This document shows, one piece after another, positions 11,621 to 63,260 of a DNA stretch of 64,000 bases (the first letter of the stretch is position 1; each line of letters starts with the position of its first letter). The notes beneath the pieces were generated by a model that searched no databases, was not told the origin of the DNA, and worked only from the letters and a program-made list of their open reading frames with translations. The DNA comes from Patescibacteria group bacterium. Its GTDB lineage: Bacteria; Patescibacteriota; Patescibacteriia; GWA2-46-9. The stretch is from the NCBI GenBank assembly GCA_041675205.1, contig JBAYUF010000005.1:6159-70158 (forward strand). The letters are read 5' to 3'. The position numbers were made by a program, and so were the translations under genes.

Positions 11621-11694
11621 GGGGGCGTAGTGAAGTGGCATCATGCGGGTCTCCAAAACCTAAGTCGTAGGTTCGATTCCTACCGCCCCTGCCA
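11621..11694 (+). tRNA. tRNA-Trp (anticodon CCA), CCA encoded
   Basis: Acceptor GGGGGCG/CGCCCCT, D-stem GTGA/TCAT, anticodon stem CGGGT/ACCTA with loop CTCCAAA, T-arm GTAGGTTCGATTCCTAC, discriminator G. Confidence 0.75.
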
Positions 11695-11695
11695 G

Positions 11696-11735
11696 AAAAA
11701 TCCGTCACCATTTGGTGTACGGATTTTTCTGTTAT
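11696..11735 (+). terminator. intrinsic terminator hairpin (AAAAATCCGT...ACGGATTTTT), A- and T-flanked
   Basis: Perfect 10-bp stem flanked by an A-run and a T-run. A second, near-identical copy lies at 14652-14690. Confidence 0.7.
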
Positions 11736-11860
11736 TGGAAGGCGGAGTCGAACCTGGGGAAGGGGTCGGGGAACGGGAGTTCCCCGTGGCGGAATTATTC
11801 AAACCGAGGGGTTTGAAAGAGTCGCGGAGCGACGATGGTTCTAGCGAAGCGGATTCTACC

Positions 11861-11882
11861 GCCCCTGCCAGTTTGAGCTAGC
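11861..11882 (+). repeat. direct repeat of the tRNA-Trp 3' end (GATTCTACCGCCCCTGCCAG), att-like
   Basis: Matches 20/21 nt of tRNA-Trp positions 11674-11695. A further partial copy (CATCTACCGCCCTTGCCA) lies at 16262-16280. Confidence 0.7.
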
Positions 11883-11996
11883 ACAAGAAGCATCGTTTCA
11901 AGAGAGTACACGTTAGGATCAATACCCAGGCGAAAGCCTGGGTATTGGCGTATTAGGGCGAAAGAATTGAATTTGCATATATGATATTATGTCCTT

Positions 11997-12755
11997 ATGC
12001 GCGATGATGAACAGCCGGTATGTCCCAACTGTGGTTGGCCACTCCACATAGGCCAGCATGGGCCCCATCCTGAAGATGCTCCGAGAGAACCAACTCATCC
12101 ATTGCCGGAGGATTTGGCTCATCGGTTTGTGAACGGCACTATTTTTAATGATGCTGAAGTAGTAGCTGAAGGAGAACATGGTGATATCTATCGAGGCTTT
12201 ATTCGGGAGGAGCCGAATATTGGTATTCAAGCGGCGAAACTTCGGATAGATTTTCAGAAATCTAGTTCTTCAAATGCTGACACTCCAAAACAGGTACGCT
12301 TTGAATACGTACAGCCGGATAAAGTTGATTCAGAAAGTGATGTATTAGTGGCAGAAATGCATATCGCTCCATGGGGTAAAAATAAATTTGTTTTACAGCA
12401 CCGTTACGTTCAACCTGAGTTTCAAGGTAAACTTGGTCTTGGGACTAAACTTTTGCAGCAGGTAGAAAGTTGGTTAGCGCAAGTGGCGAGTGAAAAGAAA
12501 GAGGATGTGATTCTCGAAGTAGATACAGGCCAGAAGGGAGTGATTTCTTGGGTCGAGAAAAATGGTTTTTCTGTTGATCCTGATCAAGTCAAAGAATTGC
12601 AGGAGGTTGTGGATCATCCTGACCGATATGCGCTCGAAGACGTTCCTGATGTTGACGGATTGACTAAACCCGAATTCATTTTTAGAAATGATACCCCGGG
12701 CAGAACCGTTATTGACGCAGTTCGTTTTACTTTTAGTAAGAAGATTTCTGGTTGA
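11997..12755 (+). CDS. GNAT-family acetyltransferase with N-terminal CxxC zinc-ribbon-like motif
   Basis: CPNCGWPLH N-terminus; GNAT motif A-like FQGKLGLGTKLLQQVE. Confidence 0.5.
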   Translation: MRDDEQPVCPNCGWPLHIGQHGPHPEDAPREPTHPLPEDLAHRFVNGTIFNDAEVVAEGEHGDIYRGFIREEPNIGIQAAKLRIDFQKSSSSNADTPKQVRFEYVQPDKVDSESDVLVAEMHIAPWGKNKFVLQHRYVQPEFQGKLGLGTKLLQQVESWLAQVASEKKEDVILEVDTGQKGVISWVEKNGFSVDPDQVKELQEVVDHPDRYALEDVPDVDGLTKPEFIFRNDTPGRTVIDAVRFTFSKKISG

Positions 12756-12765
12756 ACAGAGTCCG

Positions 12766-12856
12766 CTCGAGGTGCATTGTTTTGATCATTGAAACAAGGC
12801 CCCAAAAGCCTTACTGGTGTTGACCGATTGAGGTTCGATCTCGAGGTGGCCTGCCA
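12766..12856 (+). repeat. structured intergenic repeat, family A, copy 1 (CTCGAGGTG...GGTTCGATCTCGAGGTGGCCTGCCA)
   Basis: Aligned by eye with four other copies. Conserved ends and a central AAGGC/GCCTT hairpin; the 5' hairpin varies in sequence but keeps its structure. Confidence 0.75.
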
Positions 12857-13032
12857 AAAGAGTTCTGTCTGTGAAAGGCCTTTTTAATACAGTAATCATT
12901 GACAAGGGATGCCTTTTTCCATACAGTGCTGCTCGTCGTGGATGTAGAAGATTCGTAAGTTTCAATTCACAACTCAGGGCTTGGTCGGCTCTGACCCACA
13001 GAGAAGCCGAAGAAATTCGGCAAGGAGGAACC

Positions 13033-13614
13033 ATGACCGCAATCCGAAGAGTAGTTGATATGCTGGGGCTCAATTGCTTGCCGTTACTCGTCTCGTTCCG
13101 CAAGGCACATGACGATCGACGGCAGGGAGGTGCTCGCAAGCCGCGTCGCATCGCGCCTCGTGTGCTCATCCGCTGCGGATGCTGCAAGCAACGCGTCGAG
13201 GTGTGTGTTGATGAGCATCCGACGGGAGATCCTCATGTTGACATGCTCGAAATCAACGGCGTCTATGGCAGCATCGACCAGTGGCGACAGGTGCTGCTGC
13301 CACTCCTCGGTGTACCGATGCCGGACGCTGAGCGTCGCGAAGCTCGTCTCGCGCTCGTTCGCCGTCGTATGGTGAACGACGGCAGGATGAGGGAGGCGGG
13401 AGACTGCAGATCGTGTGGCGATCCGGCGGAAGAGCCTGAAGGCGAAGACGTTCCCGCCGGTCTCTGTTCGGAGTGCCAGGATATGCAGAAGAAGGGCTGG
13501 CTCAGCAACACGGAGCCCTCGCGACCACTGGTGCCACGCGCATCGGATCGGAGAGAGCCTCTTACCCGAAGTGGCCCGGCGTATTCGCTTTACGATCCAG
13601 CGCGTCAGGGCTGA
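13033..13614 (+). CDS. Cys-rich hypothetical protein in a high-GC cassette
   Basis: Roughly 62% GC against about 40% in neighbours. Strong SD (AAGGAGGAAccATG). Multiple CxxC pairs (CGCCKQ, CRSCG, CSECQ). The track ORF extends upstream to 12871. Confidence 0.5.
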   Translation: MTAIRRVVDMLGLNCLPLLVSFRKAHDDRRQGGARKPRRIAPRVLIRCGCCKQRVEVCVDEHPTGDPHVDMLEINGVYGSIDQWRQVLLPLLGVPMPDAERREARLALVRRRMVNDGRMREAGDCRSCGDPAEEPEGEDVPAGLCSECQDMQKKGWLSNTEPSRPLVPRASDRREPLTRSGPAYSLYDPARQG

Positions 13615-13626
13615 TCGAATGTGCGT

Positions 13627-13680
13627 GGGGCGGGTTCGGTTGGTTGCAACAAGCTTCCGACCGACCCGCCCTTCGTCCTT
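13627..13680 (+). repeat. GC-rich imperfect palindrome, family B copy 1 (GGGGCGGGTTCGGTTGG-TTGCAACAAGCTT-CCGACCGACCCGCCC)
   Basis: Long imperfect inverted repeat with a conserved loop. A second copy at 24810-24866 follows the other high-GC cassette. Confidence 0.65.
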
Positions 13681-13711
13681 TTCAAACATTTTTTTATTTG
13701 AAGTTACTGAG

Positions 13712-13803
13712 CTCGAGGTGCGGCGTTTCGTTCATCTAAAATAGACCCCAAAAGCCTTACTGGTGTTGACCGATTGGGGGTTCGGTCTCGAGGCGGCCTG
13801 CCA
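13712..13803 (+). repeat. structured intergenic repeat family A, copy 2
   Basis: Same ends (CTCGAGGTGC ... CTCGAGGCGGCCTGCCA); hairpin GACCG...CGGTC fully paired in this copy. Confidence 0.75.
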
Positions 13804-13848
13804 AAAGAGTTCTGCCCGAGGAGGGCGGGACTTTTTTGTTTTTATTTT
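13804..13848 (+). terminator. intrinsic terminator (AAAAGAGTTCTGCCCG-gagga-GGGCGGGACTTTTTT)
   Basis: GC-rich stem with G-U pairs, A-run upstream and T-run downstream. Related copies at 12857-12885 and 16281-16320. Confidence 0.65.
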
Positions 13849-13910
13849 ATTCAGATTCAATTTCTCTGTCTGATACCAGGTCTTTCGGCGAGATATGACA
13901 GTATCAGAAT

Positions 13911-14486
13911 CTATATAAAATCGGTTTTTTGAAAATGCTGCCAGTCTTTTTGTTGCCATGTTCCGCCCCAGTCCCATCCATATTTCTTAAAAAGCTTAAC
14001 CACATGGCCGTCCGCTACTATTGCTCCTGTCGCACCGGGGTCATATGTCGCCCCTGGAGGAAAGACTGTTCCATCAATCGCGACGTAAGGGTTTGTTGCC
14101 GGGTTGATATCTATAGCAAGGCCGTATGAGTGATTAGACGGCTTATTTGTGCCGTAGATCAAGCGGTAGTTAAATGCTGAAGTGTTATTCGCAGCCATGC
14201 TGTTCTCGTCAATCCAGTTGTAGGCGACAATCGGAAGCATTTTTTCAATTGGGAAGCGTATCTCATAAAGTTGCTTGAAAATCTCCAGTACTTCTTGTTG
14301 CACCTTTTTATTTATAACTAGTTGTCCTGTATGTGTTCTTTTGTCAAAAGAAATGTAGTCGATAGTCAAAAGAGCTTGGCTATGACGAACTTCGTCGGGC
14401 ATTTGTCCAGCCAAGGATTCTTCTATTGTCATTGCGCTATCAATAATTTTGCTCATGTTTGCTCTCAGCAAGGTTATAACTTGCAT
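13911..14486 (-). CDS. M15-family zinc D-Ala-D-Ala carboxypeptidase/peptidoglycan peptidase (VanY/endolysin-like)
   Basis: SNHSYGLAIDINP and DWQHF zinc-ligand motifs. Start uncertain (Met at 14486 or 14456); the track ORF runs on into repeat A3. Confidence 0.6.
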   Translation of the reverse strand: MQVITLLRANMSKIIDSAMTIEESLAGQMPDEVRHSQALLTIDYISFDKRTHTGQLVINKKVQQEVLEIFKQLYEIRFPIEKMLPIVAYNWIDENSMAANNTSAFNYRLIYGTNKPSNHSYGLAIDINPATNPYVAIDGTVFPPGATYDPGATGAIVADGHVVKLFKKYGWDWGGTWQQKDWQHFQKTDFI

Positions 14487-14560
14487 ATAAATATTATCAT
14501 AAATAGGAACTCGTGATCGGGCCGTGTCACTTTTGTCACTTTTCACTAAATCCGCAGGTG

Positions 14561-14651
14561 CTCGAGGTGTGTCGTTTTGATCATCGGAAAAAGGTTCCAA
14601 ACGCCTTACTGGTGTTGACCGATTCGGGTTCGGTCTCGAGGTGGCCTGCCA
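14561..14651 (+). repeat. structured intergenic repeat family A, copy 3
   Basis: CTCGAGGTGT...GGTCTCGAGGTGGCCTGCCA, followed directly by the AAAAATCCGT terminator copy. Confidence 0.75.
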
Positions 14652-14690
14652 GAAAAATCCGTCACCGTTTTGGTGGACGGATTTTTCTGT
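14652..14690 (+). terminator. intrinsic terminator, second copy of the AAAAATCCGTCACC...ACGGATTTTT hairpin
   Basis: Near-identical to 11696-11735. Confidence 0.65.
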
Positions 14691-14773
14691 TGTTGGGTGA
14701 AAGGAATCGAACTTGAGAAGGGGGTCGTAACTGCAAGAGGAGAAGAAAAATTAGATTATGATAGAATAAGGTT

Positions 14774-15844
14774 ATGAAAATTGCAGATATCAATAAGTAT
14801 AGTTGGATAAAAAATTGGGGTGGAAACTGGAGTTTCCTGACGTGTTTTTACTTTGCCAATTACTATACAGGTGAAATGTGGAAGCAGATGGGTAAGGGTA
14901 TAAAAAAAGCCGTCATCATTTCGAATAATGGATATGGTTTTTGTTATTTCGATCCTAGTGATCGAGAATTATATGGAAAATACATAGGACTAAAAATAGG
15001 TAAGAATAAAGCGGCAGCTTTGAAATTTAGTAATGAACTAAAAAATCAAGCCGACACCTTGATTGAATATACTCACAAGTTAAGGAAGATGAAGACCGTT
15101 TCCTCAGTAGAGTATTATGATTTTCTGAGAAAATTTCTAGCATATTCTGGCCCGCACATGAGCATTCGGCCTACAGTTGATTATCTGCCAGAAAAACAGG
15201 TGAGACTGGTTCTGCCAATTTTCGAAAAAACTAGATTGTACGTAGAGGATGTTTATTTTGCGACAGAAGTGTTTATGCGTCATTGGGCCGAACAATTATC
15301 TGAACGAATGCGAGTCAATCCAAAATTCATACTCTCTTGCACGCCGTCCGAAATTAAGAATTATTGGCTTCATCAAAAGCTACCACCAACAAAGATTTTA
15401 AAAGCGCGATTTGTATCAAGCGGTATTATTTTTGATCGATTAGAAAACAAGGTTTTTGTTGGCCGCACCGTGGAAAGAATTGAAAAACTTCTTCAAGGCA
15501 GGCCGGACAAAAAAGAAATTAAGGGCCAAACAGCCTACGGAGGATTGGTTAAAGGTAACGCAAGAATCATTTTTAATCCTACGGTTCATAGCGCGCGAGT
15601 TTTTCAGAAGGGCGATATATTAATTACTGGAATGACAAGGCCAGAATTTTTACCTTTGATGCGAAAAGCTGGTGCAGTTGTTACAGATGCTGGAGGTATT
15701 TTAAGTCACGCTGCAATTACAGCCCGTGAAATGAAAATACCGACCGTCATAGGCACTACTGTTGCGACCAAAATTTTCAAAGATGGTGATATGGTTGAAG
15801 TTGATGCCACCCACGGAGTAGTAAGAATACTAAAATCACAGTAG
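14774..15844 (+). CDS. PEP-utilizing-enzyme mobile (phosphohistidine swivel) domain protein with uncharacterized N-terminal domain
   Basis: C-terminal GDILITGMTRPEFLPLMRKAGAVVTDAGGILSHAAITAREMKIPTVIG matches the PEP-utilizer His domain (catalytic His in SHAAI). About 37% GC. Confidence 0.6.
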   Translation: MKIADINKYSWIKNWGGNWSFLTCFYFANYYTGEMWKQMGKGIKKAVIISNNGYGFCYFDPSDRELYGKYIGLKIGKNKAAALKFSNELKNQADTLIEYTHKLRKMKTVSSVEYYDFLRKFLAYSGPHMSIRPTVDYLPEKQVRLVLPIFEKTRLYVEDVYFATEVFMRHWAEQLSERMRVNPKFILSCTPSEIKNYWLHQKLPPTKILKARFVSSGIIFDRLENKVFVGRTVERIEKLLQGRPDKKEIKGQTAYGGLVKGNARIIFNPTVHSARVFQKGDILITGMTRPEFLPLMRKAGAVVTDAGGILSHAAITAREMKIPTVIGTTVATKIFKDGDMVEVDATHGVVRILKSQ

Positions 15845-15935
15845 CTCGAGGTGCATCATTTTTGCCATCAAAATAAGGCCCCAAAAAGCCTCACTGGTGT
15901 TGATTGATTGGGGTTCGATCTCGAGGTGGCCTGCC
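15845..15935 (+). repeat. structured intergenic repeat family A, copy 4
   Basis: Begins immediately after the TAG stop at 15842-15844. Hairpin 3 carries compensatory changes (GATTG/CGATC). Confidence 0.75.
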
Positions 15936-16420
15936 GTAGAAGGAGGAGTGTCCGAATGGCTGTTCGTCTTTTCTGTTATATGAGTTGTCTAGACAGGTGT
16001 GTGTGCCTTCACTATACTACTTACTATATGGATGAATCACTTATCATACAAAAGCTGGTTTCCTTGGATGAAAAGATTAGTGGTATTGCGACTCAAGACA
16101 GCCTGATAAAACTTTCTGATGACATCACGCAGGCACTTGATGACCAGCTTGTTATTTTGCAAAGATTGGATTAAGAGAGGCTTTTCACTATGGAACGAAT
16201 AAAGAGAATTGAAGCGGATGTTGAAGAATTAAAATTACAACTGAAAGTGGCTTAAGAGCTTCGACTTCATCTACCGCCCTTGCCAAAAGAGTTCTGCCCG
16301 TCGGGGCGGGACTCTTTTTACGTGAGAGAATATTGAAAAAGAGGGTATTTTTTATTGTAGAAAGATAGTACAGCGAGAATCAGAGGTATGGTAAACTGAT
16401 TTTGCTGACTAAATGACTCT

Positions 16421-16918
16421 ATGAGAACTAGAAAAGAATTAGAGAGGTATGTTACTTCAGTCGGAAAGGATATTAAGGATTGTAGAATAGCTGTCGGTTC
16501 ACTCATTTTTGACAAGGAAAATAAAGTCATACTACTTGAACGTGGAGATAGTTCACGCGATAGTGCTGGTAAGTTTGAAGGTGTAGGCGGGGGTGTTGAC
16601 GCCGCCGAAGAAAATTTGCACGAAGCGCTACAACGAGAGATACATGAGGAAATCGGTGAAGTTCAGGTTGATATAAAAGAGTTACTCACCGTAATGATTC
16701 TACCAGGCTCGACGGGCGGTACGTGGGTTGTTCCAATTTATTTATGTAGATTAAAAAGCGGGGAGCCAATAGTTATGGAGCCTGATAAGATAGTTAAAAT
16801 ACATCATTTCAAGCTGGGGGACATACCCTACAATAAGCTGAGCGCGTATCAGAAAAGTACGATGGATGCTTATCGTGAGAAGTACGGCCAAGAAGTATTT
16901 GACGTTCTTTCGAGTTGA
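16421..16918 (+). CDS. NUDIX hydrolase
   Basis: Nudix box GGGVDAAEENLHEALQREIHEEIGE. Confidence 0.7.
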   Translation: MRTRKELERYVTSVGKDIKDCRIAVGSLIFDKENKVILLERGDSSRDSAGKFEGVGGGVDAAEENLHEALQREIHEEIGEVQVDIKELLTVMILPGSTGGTWVVPIYLCRLKSGEPIVMEPDKIVKIHHFKLGDIPYNKLSAYQKSTMDAYREKYGQEVFDVLSS

Positions 16919-16939
16919 CTTGCAGAAGGGATTATCTGT

Positions 16940-18424
16940 TTGGACTCACTACGTAAGCGAAATATGAAGTTTGATAATTTTGAAATTTACGAAAGAATTT
17001 ATAGTAGCCATTGGTTTCTGACTTCCTACAATGGAATCGGATTTATTTTTGATTTCCCAAAAATCGGCGGTGGCAATTTTCTAAAGAAAGTCATTTATGT
17101 GATGGAAAATCAGATGTGTCGCTATATATTTAATCATAAGGAGTTTGAGCTGGCTGCCAACTATACTGCCGATAAATTAATCAATAATAACAAATGGAGA
17201 AAAGAAGTTTACGAAAAAATTGATTATTTTACAAAACAGTATTTTGATGCAGGAGAAAATTTAAGAGATTCAAATTTATCTTTGCTCTCTAACAAAGAGC
17301 TAATTAAACGCATTCGACGAATAATTGTTTTTCAGCATTACCATCAAGTCTACAGTGTTTTGGCCAATGGAGTAGTTTTAGATGGCCGCAATCATATGTC
17401 GAATAAAATTCGAGATGAATTACGAAATAATTTAAACTTCCCTCCGAAGTTTGAGAATTATTGGAGCACATTAACTCAAATTACGAGGATGAGTCTTCGG
17501 CAGAAAAAAGATTATGAAATTTCTCTTTTAGCAAAAAAGGTTGGAATACTAACTCAGAAACAAATTGAATCAAAATTAAAAAAGCTGCATAAAGAGTATT
17601 GTTGGCTCGACTATAATAATATGGGACCGGCAACGTCGTTTGATGCGTTTCGACAGCAACTTAAAATGGCAAAGCGGAGCGATAAGGACTTGAATGTACC
17701 GAAGCGTTTGGCAGTTTTGAAGAAAAAACAAAGACAATTGATGTCTACATTGAAATTTAACCGAAGGTCTAGATTTTTGATTGCATTAGCCCAACAGGTG
17801 ATTTGGCAGAAAGGGTATCGAAAGGATGTTCAGTATCATGGATTTTATTGCTATGAGCCCTTGTTGCAAGAGCTCGTAAGAAGAAAAAAAGTTTCTGATT
17901 GGCAAACATTGAGTTTCCTATTCCCTTGGGAACTTGAGGGTTATATAAAATCAAATAAACCGACCACTGCTGAATTGGAACAAAGGCGCAAGCTTTCAGT
18001 CTTTATGGTGACAAGAGCGGGACATTCAATCATGGTAGGAAAAAAAGCAAAGATGACTGTAAAAAAATTTGGATCACTTGAAAATTTTACAAGTGTAACC
18101 GAAGTAAGGGGTCAAGTTGCGTATACAGGATTAGTTCGCGGTAAGGTTAAAATCATTCAAACTCCGTCAGACATGGTCAAAATGAACAAAGGGGATGTTC
18201 TCATGTCCCAGGCAACCAGTCCTGATTTACTGCCCGCAATGAAAAAAGCTGGTGCAATTGTTACGAATACCGGTGGTTTAATTTGCCATGCTGCAATAAC
18301 TTCTCGCGAATTAAAGATTCCTTGTGTAGTTGGCACAGCAAAAGCAACCTTAGTCTTTAAAGACGGAGATTTGGTAGAGGTTGATGCAACTAGCGGAGTC
18401 GTAAAAATAGTAAAATCAGAATAG
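16940..18424 (+). CDS. PEP-utilizing-enzyme mobile-domain protein, paralog 2, with larger uncharacterized N-terminal region
   Basis: C-terminal GDVLMSQATSPDLLPAMKKAGAIVTNTGGLICHAAITSRELKIPCVVG is homologous to the C-terminus of 14774-15844. AT-rich. Confidence 0.6.
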   Translation: MDSLRKRNMKFDNFEIYERIYSSHWFLTSYNGIGFIFDFPKIGGGNFLKKVIYVMENQMCRYIFNHKEFELAANYTADKLINNNKWRKEVYEKIDYFTKQYFDAGENLRDSNLSLLSNKELIKRIRRIIVFQHYHQVYSVLANGVVLDGRNHMSNKIRDELRNNLNFPPKFENYWSTLTQITRMSLRQKKDYEISLLAKKVGILTQKQIESKLKKLHKEYCWLDYNNMGPATSFDAFRQQLKMAKRSDKDLNVPKRLAVLKKKQRQLMSTLKFNRRSRFLIALAQQVIWQKGYRKDVQYHGFYCYEPLLQELVRRKKVSDWQTLSFLFPWELEGYIKSNKPTTAELEQRRKLSVFMVTRAGHSIMVGKKAKMTVKKFGSLENFTSVTEVRGQVAYTGLVRGKVKIIQTPSDMVKMNKGDVLMSQATSPDLLPAMKKAGAIVTNTGGLICHAAITSRELKIPCVVGTAKATLVFKDGDLVEVDATSGVVKIVKSE

Positions 18425-18514
18425 CTCGAGGTGCGTCGTTTTCGTCTTCGAAACAAGGCTCCAAACGCCTTACTGGTGTTGACCGACCGGGGTTCGATCT
18501 CGAGGTGGCCCGCA
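18425..18514 (+). repeat. structured intergenic repeat family A, copy 5
   Basis: Starts right after the TAG stop. Its 3' end is degenerate (GGCCCGCA instead of GGCCTGCCA). A terminator hairpin CTGCC-ttaaac-GGCAG-TTTTTT follows at 18523-18551. Confidence 0.7.
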
Positions 18515-18598
18515 GCAACAAATCTGCCTTAAACGGCAGGTTTTTTATTACTCAAAACGACAGGCATCGTGAAGTTAGAACTGTGATAGAATGTATGT

Positions 18599-18934
18599 AT
18601 GACCTTTTTACAAAAAACTATATTTGTTCTGATTATCCTGCTTATCCCCATAGCCTTTTTGCTAGGAGGTTTTCTTGGCAATTTGAAATATGCAGCACCT
18701 TTGGCACACTGTAATCCTGCCTCCGTGCCATATGAAAACGCTGAAACCCAAGAAGTATCTCTACCGATGAGTACTATGTTCAGAAACTATTATGGACATA
18801 CGTATAATTTTAGTGGTCATATTGTGCCTAAAGGGGTCAGTCTAAAAGATTATTATTCAACATTTAACTCTGGTGGTTTTCATTATCTTAAAACTACCAA
18901 TGGAGAGGTAGTCGCTTGTGGATTTTATAAGTAG
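18599..18934 (+). CDS. small membrane-anchored hypothetical protein
   Basis: Hydrophobic N-terminus. ATG lies 7 nt after an extended -10 element (TGATAGAAT, 18584-18592), implying a leaderless transcript. Confidence 0.45.
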   Translation: MTFLQKTIFVLIILLIPIAFLLGGFLGNLKYAAPLAHCNPASVPYENAETQEVSLPMSTMFRNYYGHTYNFSGHIVPKGVSLKDYYSTFNSGGFHYLKTTNGEVVACGFYK

Positions 18935-19015
18935 CGAGCGGGGACTAATCGCAAATCAGGAACATAAATAAACTCACACTGCCGCTGAATAATGGTTTTG
19001 ACGTCCTCCACGATG

Positions 19016-19099
19016 CCCTGCCATCAGAAACGACCCGTAAACTCGGGTCGTTTCTGGTAGAGGGGAGTGGGACATAGAACTGTGATAGAATATTTAAGT
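19016..19099 (+). promoter_or_regulatory. terminator-promoter junction module (CCCTGCCA / 13-bp hairpin / extended -10 TGATAGAAT)
   Basis: Perfect hairpin CAGAAACGACCCG-taaact-CGGGTCGTTTCTG, then GGACATAGAACTGTGATAGAAT. ATG of the next gene is 9 nt after the -10. Confidence 0.6.
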
Positions 19100-20278
19100 A
19101 TGCAAAAAATTACTACAAGCGAGTACGCGGATTTGACACAGCACGAACTAGAGGCGCTGAAACATGAGTTTAACCTTGCGGATGCACATACTCATCAATC
19201 GCAATCGCTCACCCAGCGGAAGATTATAAGTCGACTACCAAGCCTCTGGTACCAATCGGAAAGAGCCACACAGGTCGAAATGGAGAATAAATTTATTCGT
19301 TCTTTTTTTCAGTATCATCAACAGCCTACGGCATTGAAAACACCTTCATTGTTAGTCTATGCAGCCTCCATTGGGATGGTAATTGTCTCTAACTATTTCA
19401 AGAAAAAACAACTGTCCGTTCAGCTGATAACCCCTTGTTTTGATAATCTTCCTGACCTACTAAGAAATCTTGGAGTACCAATTAAGCCGTTGCGAGAAGA
19501 GTTATTAGAGGACGCTAGTGCTATTTATCAGAATCTAGAGCGACATTGTAAAAGTGACGTTATTTTTCTTGTCTCTCCCAATAATCCGACGGGGTTTGAA
19601 CTTACAGGTAACGTAGGCACTGACTATAAGGCACGATTTAAGGAACTGATTCGCTTTGCCAAGAATCATAATAAAATCCTTGCGTTCGACTTTTGTTTTG
19701 CTTCGTTTATAGTGCAGGATGCAAAAGTACCTACGTTTGATGTCTACAGCCTGCTAGAAAAATCGGGTGTGAGCTATATTGCCATTGAGGACTCTGGGAA
19801 AACGTGGCCGCTGCAAGATGCCAAGGTGGCACTTATTAAAGCGAGCAAGAATCTTTATCCTGAGCTCCACAATATTCATACGGCGTATTTGCTCAACGTT
19901 TCACCATTTATTTTGAATCTTGTAAGCGAGTATTGTGAAGATTCGATAAAAGACAAGGGTTCTAGTATCAAGAACCTGCTTGAACGAAATCGCAAGATTG
20001 TTAAAAAGGAATTAAGCGGAGACCTGCTTGAGTTTATGGAACCTGGCACACTTGTTAGTGTCGCGTGGTTCAAGATTAGAAATTCGAAGATTATGGCAAC
20101 GACCTTGCAGAAGCATCTCTATCGCAAGGCAAGGGTGTACGTATTGCCAGGAACATACTTTTTTTGGGATAAGCCGACCAGGGGAGAAAGGTATATACGA
20201 ATTGCCTTAGCGCGTGACACGATTATGTTCAAAAAAGCAATCGCAAAAGTTAAGAAGGCTCTCTATGCATACAGGTAA
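19100..20278 (+). CDS. PLP-dependent aminotransferase (class I/II fold)
   Basis: SPNNPTG motif and a candidate PLP-lysine in EDSGKTW. Start moved to the ATG at 19100 because the track start at 19067 lies inside the promoter element. Confidence 0.6.
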   Translation: MQKITTSEYADLTQHELEALKHEFNLADAHTHQSQSLTQRKIISRLPSLWYQSERATQVEMENKFIRSFFQYHQQPTALKTPSLLVYAASIGMVIVSNYFKKKQLSVQLITPCFDNLPDLLRNLGVPIKPLREELLEDASAIYQNLERHCKSDVIFLVSPNNPTGFELTGNVGTDYKARFKELIRFAKNHNKILAFDFCFASFIVQDAKVPTFDVYSLLEKSGVSYIAIEDSGKTWPLQDAKVALIKASKNLYPELHNIHTAYLLNVSPFILNLVSEYCEDSIKDKGSSIKNLLERNRKIVKKELSGDLLEFMEPGTLVSVAWFKIRNSKIMATTLQKHLYRKARVYVLPGTYFFWDKPTRGERYIRIALARDTIMFKKAIAKVKKALYAYR

Positions 20279-21510: not shown

Positions 21511-21613
21511 CTCCGTGTATACATATCAGGACGGTAACTAGATAAAGCAAAGTTCTGCAGTTGAAGTTCTAGTTTGATAGCTACCCAATTCTAGGTTCAA
21601 ACTTGTGTACTAG

Positions 21614-21692
21614 CCCTGCCATCAGAAATGACCTATAAACTCGGGTCGTTTTTGATAGAGCGAAACAGGACATGGAACTGTGATAATATAAC
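21614..21692 (+). promoter_or_regulatory. terminator-promoter junction module, copy 2 (degenerate hairpin; extended -10 TGATAATAT)
   Basis: GCCCTGCCATCAGAAATGACC...GGACATGGAACTGTGATAATAT. ATG at 21696 is about 7 nt after the -10. Confidence 0.55.
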
Positions 21693-22373
21693 TTGATGAA
21701 AGACAAAGTCATTGTTATTACGGGTGGAAGCAAAGGCCTCGGCAAGGGTCTCGCTAATATTTTGGCAAATAACAGTAATAGAGTAGTCATTTGCGCTCGA
21801 CATGAAGTTGAATTAGATAAGACTGCGAAAGAGATTGGCGCAATCCCTTTTCTTGCGGATGTGGCAAAAGAAGAGGATGTAGAATTGCTTGCCGCCTATG
21901 CTGTAAAAGAATTTGGATGCATTGATTTATGGATAAACAATGCCGGCATTTGGTTGCCCCATGCATCGATTGAAGACACCGATCTAAAAAAAGTGCAAGA
22001 GATGTTTTTGGTTAATGTGTTTGGTACGATGAATGGCTCAAAGATTGCGCTTACGCAAATGAGGAAACAGGGTCATGGAACGGTCGTTAACATTATTTCA
22101 ACAAGCGGATTAATTGCTCGGCCTCAGTCGTCAGGATATGCGGCAAGTAAGTGGGCAGTTCGTGGATTTACTGATTCAATTCGTGAAGAAGTTAAGGGCA
22201 CGGATATCCATGTTCTGAGTGTGTACCCCGGGGGCATGCAAACAGATCTATTTGGCGAACAGAAACCGGAAGAGATGAATAAGTATATGACGTTCGAATC
22301 AGTGGCAGAGAAAATTATTGAAAATTTAGATGCCCTGGAACCATTGACGGAACTAATCATCAAGCGCACGTAA
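21693..22373 (+). CDS. SDR-family short-chain dehydrogenase/reductase
   Basis: TGGSKGLGKG cofactor motif, NNAG, and catalytic YAASK. Confidence 0.75.
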   Translation: MMKDKVIVITGGSKGLGKGLANILANNSNRVVICARHEVELDKTAKEIGAIPFLADVAKEEDVELLAAYAVKEFGCIDLWINNAGIWLPHASIEDTDLKKVQEMFLVNVFGTMNGSKIALTQMRKQGHGTVVNIISTSGLIARPQSSGYAASKWAVRGFTDSIREEVKGTDIHVLSVYPGGMQTDLFGEQKPEEMNKYMTFESVAEKIIENLDALEPLTELIIKRT

Positions 22374-23347: not shown

Positions 23348-23611
23348 GCATTGCTTCGAAGCACTTTCTTTTTAAGCTAGAGTGATCCTGGATCAAGCAC
23401 CGCAAGCGTTTTCAAGTCTGGTACATAAAATCCGTTTGACTGCCGTATACTGGTTCTAACGTCCTCTATGATGCCCGCCAGTTTGAGCTAGCACGAGAAG
23501 CATCGTTTCAAGATAGTTAGAAATCAACACCCAGGTGAAAGCCTGGGTGTTGATGTTTGATAGGTAAACCAGAAAAGTTTGGAACTGTGATAAAATTACA
23601 TAATGCAAGAT

Positions 23612-24101
23612 GTTAACTTTTCAGTTGATGGAAAAAAGCTCACAGGTAACACTTTTTTCCAGAAACACTTCAGTTAAAAAATCCAGCCGCTTTGATTATT
23701 CATGGATGGGAGAGTAAACAGGACAGAGGTTTTTTATTAGCGGAGGCGCTCGCTGAACAACGTGACTAAAAAGTTTTATCACAAATTGCCAGGAGGGGGA
23801 GTTGAGGAAGGTGAAGACATTGAGACTGGATTGCGTCGAGAATCGTTTGAGGAGATTGGTTGTACAATTGAGTATATTCATGAGCTAGGAACTATTGAAG
23901 AATATCGAAATGAATGCAGAAACGGGGGAGGTCGGCATCAAATCTCACATTGCTTCATCGCCGAAATTGCTGGAGATACTTGAAGTTGCTATCGAGAAAT
24001 TAGAAAGCGAGGCAAGTGTTGAAGATTATGAGGGCAAATTTATAAGATTAAGAGATCTTTTGTTTCTTAAAGAAGCAAGTTCGTGGATGCAGATCAATTG
24101 A
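23612..24101 (+). pseudogene. NUDIX hydrolase pseudogene (at least two frameshifts)
   Basis: The Nudix box LPGGGVEEGEDIETGLRRESFEEIG lies in one frame while the N-terminal and C-terminal segments continue in other frames (23612-23677, 23762-23983, 23895-24101). Confidence 0.55.
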
Positions 24102-24259
24102 AGCCCCTTCTTGATAGCTGTTGTTCTGCTGTGAGGTGGTTTTTAATAATAAAGTAATCATTGACAAAGAAAGTTTTTTTCAATAAGGTGTTGCTCGTCG
24201 TGGATGCGGAACGATTTTTAAAAACGAAGAAAGATTCAAATATTCGGTACGGAGGAATC

Positions 24260-24809: not shown

Positions 24810-24866
24810 GGGGGGCGGTCTGATTGGTTGCAACAAGCTTCCAAACGGCCCGCCCCTCGTCCTGTC
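24810..24866 (+). repeat. GC-rich imperfect palindrome, family B copy 2
   Basis: GGGGGCGGTCTGATTGG-TTGCAACAAGCTT-CCAAACGGCCCGCCCC, with the same loop as 13627-13680. Confidence 0.65.
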
Positions 24867-24908
24867 CAAATATTTAATTTTCATTTGAAACCATAGTTCT
24901 CAAGGTGG

Positions 24909-24991
24909 CCTGCCATCAGACATGACCCGTGAACTCGGGTCTTTTTTGGTAGAGAGGAGTAGCACATGGAACTGTGATAGTATTCGTACGT
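24909..24991 (+). promoter_or_regulatory. terminator-promoter junction module, copy 3 (extended -10 TGATAGTAT)
   Basis: GGCCTGCCATCAGACATGACCCGTGAACTCGGGTC...CACATGGAACTGTGATAGTAT. ATG at 24992 lies 8 nt after the -10. Confidence 0.55.
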
Positions 24992-25615
24992 ATGGAACTA
25001 TTTCTAACATCGAGCGTTCACGCTGTGGCGCAAGACATTGCCAAGAAGATTAACCTTGTTAAGGCAAACAAGCTAGTGTTTATCACTACTGCCGCTGAGC
25101 CGAAAGAGGAAGGGGATTTAACCTGGCTTTATAACGATAGACAGGCGTTGGTCGATGCTGGCTTTAATGTCGTTGATTATACAATTACTAATAAGAACAA
25201 AAGCGAGCTAGAGCGTGACCTTGAGGGTTTCGACTACATCTATCTCTCAGGAGGGAATACCGCTTATCTTTTACAACAATCTCAAAAATCAGGATTTGTT
25301 GCTTTGGTAAAAGAACTCGTTCAGAAGAAAGGTAAAGTCTACATCGGGACTAGTGCAGGCTCAGTCATTGCCGGGCCGAGACTCTCTGATTACTACATTG
25401 ACGAATCAACAGAGTTGGAAGACAAAAAAGGATATGGGTTTGTAAATTTTACAATTGTTCCGCATTGGGGTTCTGGTGATTTTAGAAAAACGTACTTAGG
25501 CGAGAGATTGAAGATTGTGTATAAAGAAGATCAAGTGCCCCTACTTCTTCTTACTGATAATCAATACGTTCACATAAAAGATGAGCAGATGAAGATCATT
25601 GATGTGAAAGAGTAA
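24992..25615 (+). CDS. S51-family peptidase (dipeptidase E/cyanophycinase-like)
   Basis: LSGGNTAYLL and GTSAGSVIAGP motifs. Confidence 0.6.
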   Translation: MELFLTSSVHAVAQDIAKKINLVKANKLVFITTAAEPKEEGDLTWLYNDRQALVDAGFNVVDYTITNKNKSELERDLEGFDYIYLSGGNTAYLLQQSQKSGFVALVKELVQKKGKVYIGTSAGSVIAGPRLSDYYIDESTELEDKKGYGFVNFTIVPHWGSGDFRKTYLGERLKIVYKEDQVPLLLLTDNQYVHIKDEQMKIIDVKE

Positions 25616-26128: not shown

Positions 26129-26334
26129 GTATACGCTTGGTGGACCGGTGACTGTGTGGATAAGTGGTGTCGAGCCGGCCGGAGAGTGAACGTCGGGATC
26201 TTGGCGGTTCCAGCCGTCGACGGGGCGGATTGGCTTCGTTCAGCAATTCTTCCGACTGACCTGCTCCTCGTCCTTCTCTGACCTCCAAAATAGTTCTCGC
26301 TAGGATGAAATTTTAATTATGTTAGAATAAAATC

Positions 26335-62013: not shown

Positions 62014-62168
62014 GTCAGCCACCCGGCGACGAAGACAACCTACAATCAGAAGACCCCCGCATCGCTTGAAATAATAGTGGTGTCGGGGTCTTTAAACTTT
62101 ATGAAGTAAAAATGGCGTTTAATGATAGGCTCGCCCCACAGCGAGCCTTCTGCTATTATTCTTTCACT

Positions 62169-63260
62169 ATGGAACAAACAGAGATACCAACGTTTCCACT
62201 CGAGCGCAAAGCAGGCGTTCCAGTGCCGGTGTTAATCATTCTGTCGCTGGCTGGCGGTATGGCTGGAGCGGCGCTTCTTTTTTCGTTGTTTCCGGAACTC
62301 AGAAAAGCAGTAATCCCACCGGGTACAGAGTCTGTCATTGTGTCGTCTCCTGGTACGGTGGTGGTTGAAGAGGGGGCACGAGTGGTGGATGTTGTTCGGC
62401 AGAGCAAAACAGTTGTCGCTTCGATATTTAAGAAAGGTAATACCACCCGTCTTGGCAGCAGTGTTGTTTATCCACACTCCTCGGCAAGTGGCTCGGCAAT
62501 TATGCTGACAGCGGATGGTTGGTTTGGAACTGTTCAAAACGCCAATGTTTTGGTTGGGGATATCTTGATTGTGGATAATGTTCCTTTCGAAATTAAGACT
62601 GTGTATAAAGACAGTGCTAGCCCATTCGTGCTCGGCAAGGTTGAAGGTGCCCATTTCGCCTCTGTTACTTTTTCAGAACCAGATAACGTAGCGGTCGGAA
62701 TGACCGTTGTCGCCACAACCGGCGAGGAAGATGGCGAGCGTCTTTCACTTGTTTCTTTGACCACACCTTTCGATAGTAGCGACAAGGTACTCACGAGTGA
62801 CCGCCTCACCTATGGGTATGGGGTTTCCTCACTTCGGTTATCGACCGTTGGAATTCCGGTTTTCAGTTTACGCGGTGACCTCGTGGGCCTGACAACAAGC
62901 TCTACGTCTGGCGCAACGGTTTTGGTTCCGGCGGACGTATTGCAGTCACTTCTTGATCAGCAAATTCAATTCTCGAATAGTAAGCGAGCGAGCCTGGGTA
63001 TTACCTACGTGCGGGCATCAGTGCAGGGGGATGTGAGCGGCATGATTAGAACTGTTGTCGCTAGTGCTGCAAAGAGTGCTTCCATACCGGTTGGTAGCAT
63101 CATTGTTTCAATTGATGAAGAAATAGTTGAAGACGCAGATATTTTTCGGGTGATATCTAAAAAACAACCTGGTCAAACAGTTACGTTGAAATATCGCTCT
63201 GGTGTGGAAAGTTCTCAAATCATTGAGAAGACAGTAATCCTTGGTGAGTTATCCACCTGA
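62169..63260 (+). CDS. HtrA/DegP-like trypsin-fold protein with C-terminal PDZ domain, catalytic motifs degenerate
   Basis: N-terminal TM, a trypsin-like beta-barrel region, and a PDZ-like C-terminus (GSIIVSIDEEIVEDADIFRVISKKQPGQTVTLKY). No recognizable GNSGG or TNxHV motifs. Confidence 0.5.
   Translation: MEQTEIPTFPLERKAGVPVPVLIILSLAGGMAGAALLFSLFPELRKAVIPPGTESVIVSSPGTVVVEEGARVVDVVRQSKTVVASIFKKGNTTRLGSSVVYPHSSASGSAIMLTADGWFGTVQNANVLVGDILIVDNVPFEIKTVYKDSASPFVLGKVEGAHFASVTFSEPDNVAVGMTVVATTGEEDGERLSLVSLTTPFDSSDKVLTSDRLTYGYGVSSLRLSTVGIPVFSLRGDLVGLTTSSTSGATVLVPADVLQSLLDQQIQFSNSKRASLGITYVRASVQGDVSGMIRTVVASAAKSASIPVGSIIVSIDEEIVEDADIFRVISKKQPGQTVTLKYRSGVESSQIIEKTVILGELST

Follow-up and report, generated by a model that had tools for sequence, protein, structure and literature searches.

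Five 91-nt repeats in a Patescibacteria genome as probable boundary sites of an integron-like cassette array behind tRNA-Trp

Downstream of a tRNA-Trp gene in a Patescibacteria genome (assembly GCA_041675205.1, contig JBAYUF010000005.1, positions 6,159 to 70,158; this whole 64-kb stretch is referred to here as the window), five intergenic repeats of about 91 nt, designated R1 to R5, raise the question of whether such elements serve as recombination sites, as RNA elements or as small mobile repeats. These three roles had been proposed in an earlier description made from the letters of the window (the sequence-only reading), which also saw selection on structure in covarying hairpins and likened the repeat ends to the 3' end of tRNA-Trp. 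The best-supported answer keeps recombination as the role of R and regards its tRNA-like end as meaningful; selection on structure is not supported. Specifically, with a probability that we put at about 0.55, one subfamily of small gene cassettes uses R1 to R5 as its attachment (boundary) sites, within an integron-like array that is anchored on the 3' end of tRNA-Trp. The sequence-only reading overlooked this larger structure, which reaches to about 25 kb of the window and includes other types of sites.

The repeat family itself was confirmed. A profile built from the five copies recovered each of them from the window at E values of 1e-27 to 1e-29 (nhmmer), all on the + strand, and detected no further full copy. 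Pairwise identity is 80-87%, with a star-like pattern. All five copies are located 1.1-6.9 kb downstream of tRNA-Trp in one orientation, and each closes a cassette: R1 (12765-12856) closes C2, which carries a GNAT gene (11997-12755; Pfam); R2 (13711-13803) closes C3, with a GC-rich open reading frame (ORF; 13033-13614) and a hairpin, H (13627-13691); R3 (14560-14651) closes C4, with an M15 peptidase gene on the minus strand (13911-14459; Pfam); R4 (15844-15936) closes C5, with a PEP-utilizer gene (14774-15844); and R5 (18424-18515) closes C7, with a NUDIX gene (16421-16918) and a second PEP-utilizer gene (16940-18424). R1, R4 and R5 start 0-10 nt past stop codons, and the two copies described as directly following a stop codon are R4 and R5, which adjoin the TAG of the two PEP-utilizer paralogues. 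The upstream flanks of the copies are unrelated (39-51% in forced alignments), with the exception of R4 and R5, where they represent the 3' ends of these paralogous genes.

Divergence along R is strongly uneven. Pairs of copies differ by 0% over alignment columns 1-10, against 29% over columns 11-44 and 9% over columns 45-89 (Fisher p = 1.6e-4), which indicates constraint. This constraint acts on the sequence and not on the fold; the conserved 5' 10 nt and 3' 50 nt of R most likely represent a protein-recognition sequence in double-stranded DNA. The hexamer CTCGAG does occur at both ends of every copy, as had been stated, and is in fact part of a 9-nt direct repeat, CTCGAGGTG, for which all nine occurrences in the window fall inside R copies (0.19 expected). 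A role of CTCGAG as a restriction site was considered and dropped, since the hexamer is not avoided outside R (12 other sites in the window). R is also unlikely to be coding DNA; the frame continuing from the upstream genes contains stops in R1 and R2 and frame-shifting indels in R2 and R4.

How the repeats relate to tRNA-Trp becomes apparent from the array as a whole. The tRNA-Trp(CCA) gene (11621-11694, + strand; ARAGORN; RF00005, 59 bits), with rpmG immediately upstream, anchors the array as its primary site; the shared core comes from the 3' end of the gene, ...CTACCGCC-CCTGCCA. At least 12 junctions between 11.6 and 24.9 kb, all on the + strand and each between cargo genes, have this tRNA end, CCTG(CCA), in common. 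A GGTTC-like box precedes the core by about 13-27 nt in 11 of the 12 junctions (GGTTC in nine, GGTTT in site S1 and AGTTC in site R0). In addition to the R copies, the junctions include two displaced 3' fragments of tRNA-Trp, in which the last 15 nt of the gene recur. Fragment T'1 (11837-11870, GGTTC..ATTCTACCGCCCCTGCCA) carries an exact copy (11856-11870, 15/15), and fragment T'2 (16258-16285, GCTTCGACTTCATCTACCGCC-CTTGCCA), which has GCTTC in place of the GGTTC box, matches at 14 of 15 positions (16271-16285). Two S-type sites, which follow the sequence GGTTCTAACRTCCTCTAYNATGGYCTG, were found at 18978-19023 (S1, ACTGCCG..GGTTTTGACGTCCTCCACGATGC-CCTGCCA, core at 19017) and 23439-23480 (S2, GGTTCTAACGTCCTCTATGATG-CCCGCCA, core at 23474). 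A further tRNA-3'-like site, U (GGTTCAAACTTGTGTACTAGC-CCTGCCA, core at 21615), lies at 21594-21621, and a short R-type site, R0 (AGTTCTCAAGGTGG-CCTGCCA, core at 24909), lies at 24895-24915.

The last 25 nt of R were indeed found to have the length and ends of the tRNA-Trp segment from T-loop to CCA, with 8 + 7 identical and 10 different bases; R and tRNA-Trp share only GGTTCGAT and CCTGCCA, which are separated by 10 nt. By comparison, the CCA-like end did not prove to be a constant feature, as the core reads CCTGCCG in R4 and CCCGCAG in R5, so that these copies end in CCG and CAG, respectively. CCA behaves as part of the adjoining right-flank module rather than as a fixed feature of R.

The recombination-site reading is favoured by the exchange of flanks at this core. 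Module alpha, which consists of a terminator hairpin and a -35-like GAGTCGAAC, directly follows tRNA-Trp (11695-11780), in a layout that is also found in the flank of tRNA-Trp in one related genome (L127) and in flanks of another (L128). The same module follows R3 (14652-14735; terminator scan); over about 85 nt the two downstream flanks are approximately 90% identical, and the identity begins exactly at CCTGCCA. Module beta, also a terminator, is common to R1 (12857-12890, degenerate), R2 (13804-13840) and the tRNA fragment T'2 (16286-16320), the first identified by repeat search and the other two by repeat search and terminator scan. Module delta, a terminator with a promoter-like motif, GGAACTGTGATAGAAT, stands behind three left arms, namely S1 (19024-19105), U (21622-21703) and R0 (24916-24997), and module epsilon stands behind two, T'1 (11871-11947) and S2 (23481-23552), at 90-93% identity. 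All these modules are on the + strand, and a terminator-like hairpin stands behind most R copies (terminator scan). The motif GGAACTGTGATAGAAT, which resembles an extended -10 element (TGnTAGAAT), is found early in several cassettes, just past the terminator of the right module (about 18578, 19088, 21676, 23583 and 24978), and may represent a promoter. Because of the shared flanks, all four combinations exist (tRNA/alpha, R/alpha, tRNA fragment/beta and R/beta; here and below a slash marks the junction), which is the pattern that would be expected of attB, attR, attL and attP. The real tRNA-Trp gene and its fragments are involved in this exchange as well as R. The island is identical in three independent assemblies, as the Logan and JGI assemblies of the same organism agree with ENA ERZ27247358:k141_1282698 across it. 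A misassembly is therefore ruled out; the breaks between Logan contigs fall at R copies. The TIM protein of the window is 100% identical to that of a MAG recorded as a Patescibacteria group bacterium, with 43% for the second-best match. A candidate tRNA fragment on the minus strand of module alpha more plausibly belongs to a promoter-like segment, which recurs in conserved form in L127 and L128. In addition, GCCTGCTAGAAAAATC (19749-19764), which is located inside the aminotransferase ORF, matches the R3/alpha junction at 15 of 16 positions; about 0.6 such matches are expected in an all-against-all comparison of the region, and this one is probably due to chance.

Under the proposed mechanism, a cassette would begin with a terminator or a terminator-plus-promoter module (alpha, beta, gamma, delta or epsilon), would then carry one to three cargo genes and would end in a left arm imitating the 3' segment of tRNA-Trp, in which a T-loop-like GGTTC box is followed, after a spacing of 10-20 nt, by the core CCTG, usually with CCA. 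Two sites, or one site and the tRNA gene itself, would recombine by crossing over at or just after CCTG; this crossover would join any left arm to any right module, and cassettes would pile up behind an undamaged tRNA. R is the longest type of arm (about 84 nt before the core) and appears to derive from a whole tRNA-Trp-like sequence that contributed an anticodon-arm-like hairpin (hairpin 2), the T-loop box and the 3' end. The cassettes would move as units and a site-specific recombinase would act in trans, in a system that could either be still active or be a set of scars.

The cargo of the array is foreign and mixed. Units between junctions measure 0.2-2.6 kb, with at least 12 in 13 kb, and their cargo is mutually unrelated, including GNAT, the ORF with 60-62% GC, M15 peptidase, two PEP-utilizer proteins, NUDIX, aminotransferase, a DHDPS-like protein, DUF6190, SDR and HD; GC content across the array ranges from 30% to 62%. 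The orientation of the sites is constant even where the cassette gene is inverted (the M15 peptidase before R3). Cassettes C3 and C11 have a promoter/leader segment and a hairpin in common yet carry unrelated ORFs, and the region is modular at several levels. The promoter/leader (TTGACA...TACAGT) occurs at 12885-12949 and 24147-24211 with 82% identity and precedes ORFs whose proteins are dissimilar; it looks as if the coding part had been swapped inside a conserved expression scaffold. The ORF at 13033-13614, set in a neighbourhood of about 42% GC, has no Pfam match and a weak match to a DksA-like zinc-finger PHROG (E = 4.6e-4), and was probably acquired recently from a GC-rich donor. C11 also contains a 73-aa NUDIX fragment (23762-23983; Logan assembly annotation), which is probably what is left, as a pseudogene, of a cassette gene similar to that of C7.

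A GC-rich hairpin module (GGGGCGG...CCCGCCC) is present three times (13627-13691, 24811-24875 and 26222-26286) at 68-82% identity, and two of the three copies adjoin an R-type site on its upstream side. Behind the third stands ATAGTTCTCGCTAGG, which is similar to the left part of R0, and a decayed thirteenth boundary may exist near 26290. R0 itself was detected by nhmmer and scored 12.4 bits with a covariance model of R. The hairpin preceding it (H', 24811-24875) and the one before R2 share 82% identity, and after H' the sequence of R0 reads CTCAAGGTG-GCCTGCCA, with the 75-nt body of R absent. Since R0 is homologous yet has no body, the R body is bounded by the 9-nt direct repeat, and it would either have been inserted with a 9-bp duplication or have been deleted between the 9-nt repeats. 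Alignment of the body revealed terminal inverted repeats of only about 4 nt (ATCG/CGAT).

Whether R is itself derived from a tRNA was addressed with the covariance model, built from the five copies as the sequence-only reading had suggested and run against 207 kb of sequence. The search yielded weak matches to R0 and to tRNA-Trp genes, and no further R copy. The best matches other than the copies themselves were tRNA-Trp of L127 (16.5 bits, E about 0.05-0.1) and of L128 (12.4 bits), followed by R0; the tRNA-Trp of the window scored 5.7 bits. Hairpin 2 of R (CAAGGCCCCAAAAGCCTT; in R5, CAAGGCTCCAAACGCCTT) resembles the anticodon arm of tRNA-Trp (CAAGGGTCTCCAAAACCCTTG), and R5 holds CTCCAAA, the anticodon loop of tRNA-Trp, in a shifted register. 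Full-length descent of R from the tRNA-Trp of the window was not significant (z 1.2-1.8 for the 5' part) and was rejected, but these similarities make a tRNA-Trp-like sequence, perhaps of foreign origin, the probable ancestor of R.

No detector used here identifies R as a tRNA. ARAGORN reported five tRNAs in the window, none of them at an R copy, and RF00005 was not matched over 12400-18800 even at E <= 10. The suggested search of Rfam showed that R matches no described family; with Rfam 15 there was no match to R at the gathering threshold or at E <= 10, and only tRNAs and three chance-level matches were found elsewhere. A tRNA-type acceptor stem of 7 bp is not formed either, as the 5' end of R contains nothing complementary to GTGGCCT, the 7 nt before GCCA; the CTCGAG at this end forms pairs with the second CTCGAG, 11 nt before the end of R.

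The claim of covarying hairpins did not hold up. RNA folds of R1 to R5 reach only the stability of dinucleotide shuffles (z = -1.07, +0.65, -1.03, +0.33 and +0.63), and bottom-strand DNA folds, at -9.8 to -12.7 kcal/mol, do not exceed shuffles (z -0.91 to +0.32). The RNAalifold covariation term of the alignment is +0.68, which is a penalty. The four-helix architecture drawn in the sequence-only reading (a closing stem and three hairpins) does pair 92% of cells; two-sided changes are limited to two pairs, each of them in R4, a number that 66 of 500 column shuffles also reach. Hairpin 2, the pairing of which had been described as kept by compensatory changes, shows no such change and has three mismatched cells. 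These tests have low power, as they include only five sequences, and a structure of R is therefore unproven rather than excluded.

Tracing the tRNA-Trp neighbourhoods of other Patescibacteria, with L33 homologues as handles, revealed a second array. L128 (identical to L129 and L130; GCA_002772895.1), from a Parcubacteria lineage, has the same TIM-TPR-tRNAs-L33-tRNA-Trp synteny as the window, and the ORFs that follow tRNA-Trp over at least 10 kb are tiny and for the most part unannotated. The tRNA end CTGCCA with the terminator/promoter module recurs three more times, and sites of the form GGTTCTAAC[A/G]TCCTCTACTATGG[C/T]CTG recur about eight times; together with repeated right modules they separate the ORFs. 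Some of these sites contain mid-site insertions of 17-36 nt, and a left arm of about 90 nt is common to three or four of them. S1 and S2 of the window are clearly homologous to the L128 sites; no protein is common to the two arrays. The relative L127, which is about 82% identical to L128 in the region upstream of the tRNA cluster, has no array, and its tRNA-Trp runs ..CCTG/TGGCAAAAAACTTCTCT. In L128 this flank of the L127 tRNA stands behind an internal site (..TCTG/TAGCAAAAAACTTCTCT) and the tRNA adjoins another module, so that the two genomes provide a comparison of empty and occupied states with the switch at CTG/. It was also observed that tRNA-Trp of L127 (10250-10280) has no encoded CCA (..CCCCTG/TGG), whereas in L128 (4478-4510) CCA is supplied by the module past the junction (..CCCCTG/CCAAAGGG); the encoded CCA thus depends on the adjoining module. 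No array was present at the tRNA-Trp neighbourhoods of five other lineages. R1 with its flanks had no blastn match in phages and plasmids, scans of viral contigs found nothing for the tRNA-Trp end, module beta, module delta or the S-type site, and homologues of the PEP-utilizer gene and their contigs carry no R-like element.

Several alternatives to attachment sites need to be weighed. R could be a transcribed tRNA-like element at the mRNA 3' end, between stop codon and terminator, which would act as a processing or stability signal (e.g., as a mimic of an RNase P/Z or CCA-enzyme substrate), with the flank mosaic as a by-product of recombination. The role in the 3' untranslated region that had been suggested earlier fits R1, R4 and R5, which follow stop codons, and most R copies precede a terminator-like hairpin. 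It is further favoured by the cloverleaf-like drawing, by the anticodon-arm-like hairpin 2, T-loop box and CCA-like end, by the weak covariance-model matches to tRNA-Trp genes and by the fact that the R unit takes the same place as tRNA-Trp behind rpmG. It fits neither R3, which lies upstream of a divergent gene and not downstream of a co-oriented one, nor R2, which is located behind the hairpin terminator H. The shuffle-level stability, the non-significant covariation, the failure of ARAGORN and the Rfam tRNA model to detect R and the absence of CCA in R4 and R5 also argue against it, as do the S, U, T' and R0 boundaries, which occupy equivalent positions without an R body. This explanation is hence rather unlikely. 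Even less probable is that the R body of about 75 nt originated as an insertion like a miniature inverted-repeat transposable element (MITE) into a CTCGAGGTG target inside a short pre-existing site, with duplication of 9 bp, and that the composite then spread with the cassettes. The small mobile repeat of the sequence-only reading gains here from the bounding of the body by the 9-nt repeat and from 24895-24915, where a homologous upstream hairpin and a CTCAAGGTGG-CCTGCCA end without the body resemble an empty site. The terminal inverted repeats do not extend beyond about 4 nt, dispersed copies are missing (none outside the array in the 64 kb and none in the collections scanned), and slippage deletion between the 9-nt repeats accounts for R0 equally well.

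The repeats could also be inert relics without present function, such as local duplications, unequal crossing-over, microhomology joins of the tRNA-Trp end and a terminator, or scars of deleted integrase-bearing islands. Decayed sites (T'2, R0 and possibly the one near 26290) are in line with this explanation, and published islands too hold scattered partial tRNAs from old events (10.1101/2020.12.28.424599). Several observations weigh against attachment sites, and among them the lack of a recombinase gene, the identity of the island in three samples and the divergence of the copies also favour relics. No integrase, resolvase or transposase domain was detected in about 70 ORFs of the window that were tested, and none in the annotated genes of L128. 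Across the three independent assemblies there is no population variation, no presence/absence polymorphism of cassettes and no circular or excised form. The R copies have diverged by 13-20%, which may point to old events and to sites that are by now inert scars. With a shared core of only 4-7 nt, microhomology-mediated recombination may be an alternative for the joins. Outside the last 25 nt the similarity between R and tRNA-Trp is weak (5' part z 1.2-1.8; covariance-model E about 0.05-1). Finally, R was found in no other sequence, so that its mobility is deduced from the mosaic only: exact-pattern scans of genome, metagenome and viral contig collections gave only chance matches in GC-rich coding DNA (40 genome and 67 metagenome matches inspected), which is weak evidence, above all as regards close relatives, as these collections did not return the contig of the window either. 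Inert relics are nevertheless unlikely given the strongly uneven divergence along R, the conservation of the S-type site between genomes that have no array gene in common (with upstream identity of only about 82% even between L128 and its closer relative L127), the use of one 4-7-nt core in twelve joins, and the modular cassette ends, with the same promoter and terminator scaffold around unrelated ORFs. Overall, these alternatives explain the flank exchange at the core and the second genome less well than attachment sites do.

If R1 to R5 are attachment sites, they show likeness to several known systems. Published work takes displaced partial tRNAs to indicate that elements have integrated repeatedly at a tRNA gene, where older elements are moved outward by newer ones (PMC4383910; 10.1101/2020.12.28.424599). 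As in islands of the Islander/TIGER type, Prochlorococcus islands and tycheposons, an intact tRNA stands at one end of the array and direct repeats of its 3' segment separate the units, which carry foreign cargo with odd GC content and exchange flanks at the repeat. Such tRNA-gene islands carry an integrase, whereas none was found in any cassette or in the annotation of the L128 array. The units here are also tiny, the R and S sites are conserved non-tRNA mimics of the tRNA end (8 + 7 of 25 nt in R) rather than decayed copies, and the crossover lies at the extreme end (CCTG/CCA) and not in the T or anticodon loop.

Integron arrays likewise consist of co-oriented, short cassettes without integrase, each ending in a site of 30-90 nt with conserved ends and a variable middle, and arms and neighbours are shuffled at a short core; the tRNA end would take the role of attI. 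The suggested analogy with attC therefore stands as regards cassette boundaries and flank exchange at the CCTG(CCA) core, but the defining features of attC are missing. The R ends consist of the direct repeat CTCGAGGTG and the core, without GTTRRRY (alignment), and unlike in integrons there is no IntI among the ORFs of the window, no R''/R' consensus (RYYYAAC/GTTRRRY) and no stable bottom-strand hairpin. Moreover, the cassettes have their own terminators and promoter-like motifs, and a tRNA gene serves as the primary site. RtT RNA of the E. coli tyrT operon (Rfam RF00391) consists of repeats downstream of a tRNA gene that each end in tRNA 3' nucleotides including CCA. The position and ends of R are similar, but RtT units are head-to-tail repeats of 178 bp without intervening genes, and Rfam gave no match for R. 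Small modules without a recombinase of their own and bounded by short conserved sites are also known from the pdif modules of Acinetobacter plasmids and from IMEX elements, which are moved by host Xer recombinases. The pdif sites are 28-bp XerC-spacer-XerD sites in alternating orientation, unlike the tRNA-like direct repeats described here.

Patescibacteria (the candidate phyla radiation, CPR) have tiny genomes with few recognised mobile elements, and to our knowledge little is known of how they acquire accessory genes. More tentatively than for the sites themselves, it is possible that some Patescibacteria possess an undescribed integron-like gene-capture system, with the 3' end of tRNA-Trp as its primary site, mobile mini-cassettes that carry their own terminator and promoter and tRNA-Trp-mimicking sites of 30-90 nt (R- and S-type), and a recombinase encoded elsewhere, possibly of an unrecognised kind, that stacks and shuffles the cassettes at CCTG/CCA. 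If true, this would represent a compact gene-capture locus without an integrase in cis, located behind a universally conserved tRNA gene and represented by two distant members with related boundary sites. If the system is active, such arrays could be used to locate flexible gene pools in CPR metagenomes, the recombinase responsible could be sought with a defined DNA site as bait, and integrons might have a parallel with an origin in tRNA-targeted integration. Even if only scars are left, the array would still show that integrating repeatedly at tRNA-Trp has been a main way for genes to enter these genomes.

Two other observations were made in the course of this analysis. The largest unannotated protein of the window is encoded by a 382-aa ORF at 62112-63260, with no match in Pfam or PHROG. 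On two other CPR contigs, L041 (7030-7155, 9890-10010 and 11060-11195) and L043 (1322-1424), each gene of a tandem series of PEP-utilizer paralogues has a hairpin behind it, after which the conserved C-terminal coding motif (..VDA..G.V.I.KK*) appears a second time; this could be due to duplication of the gene end by recombination or to a short intervening sequence.

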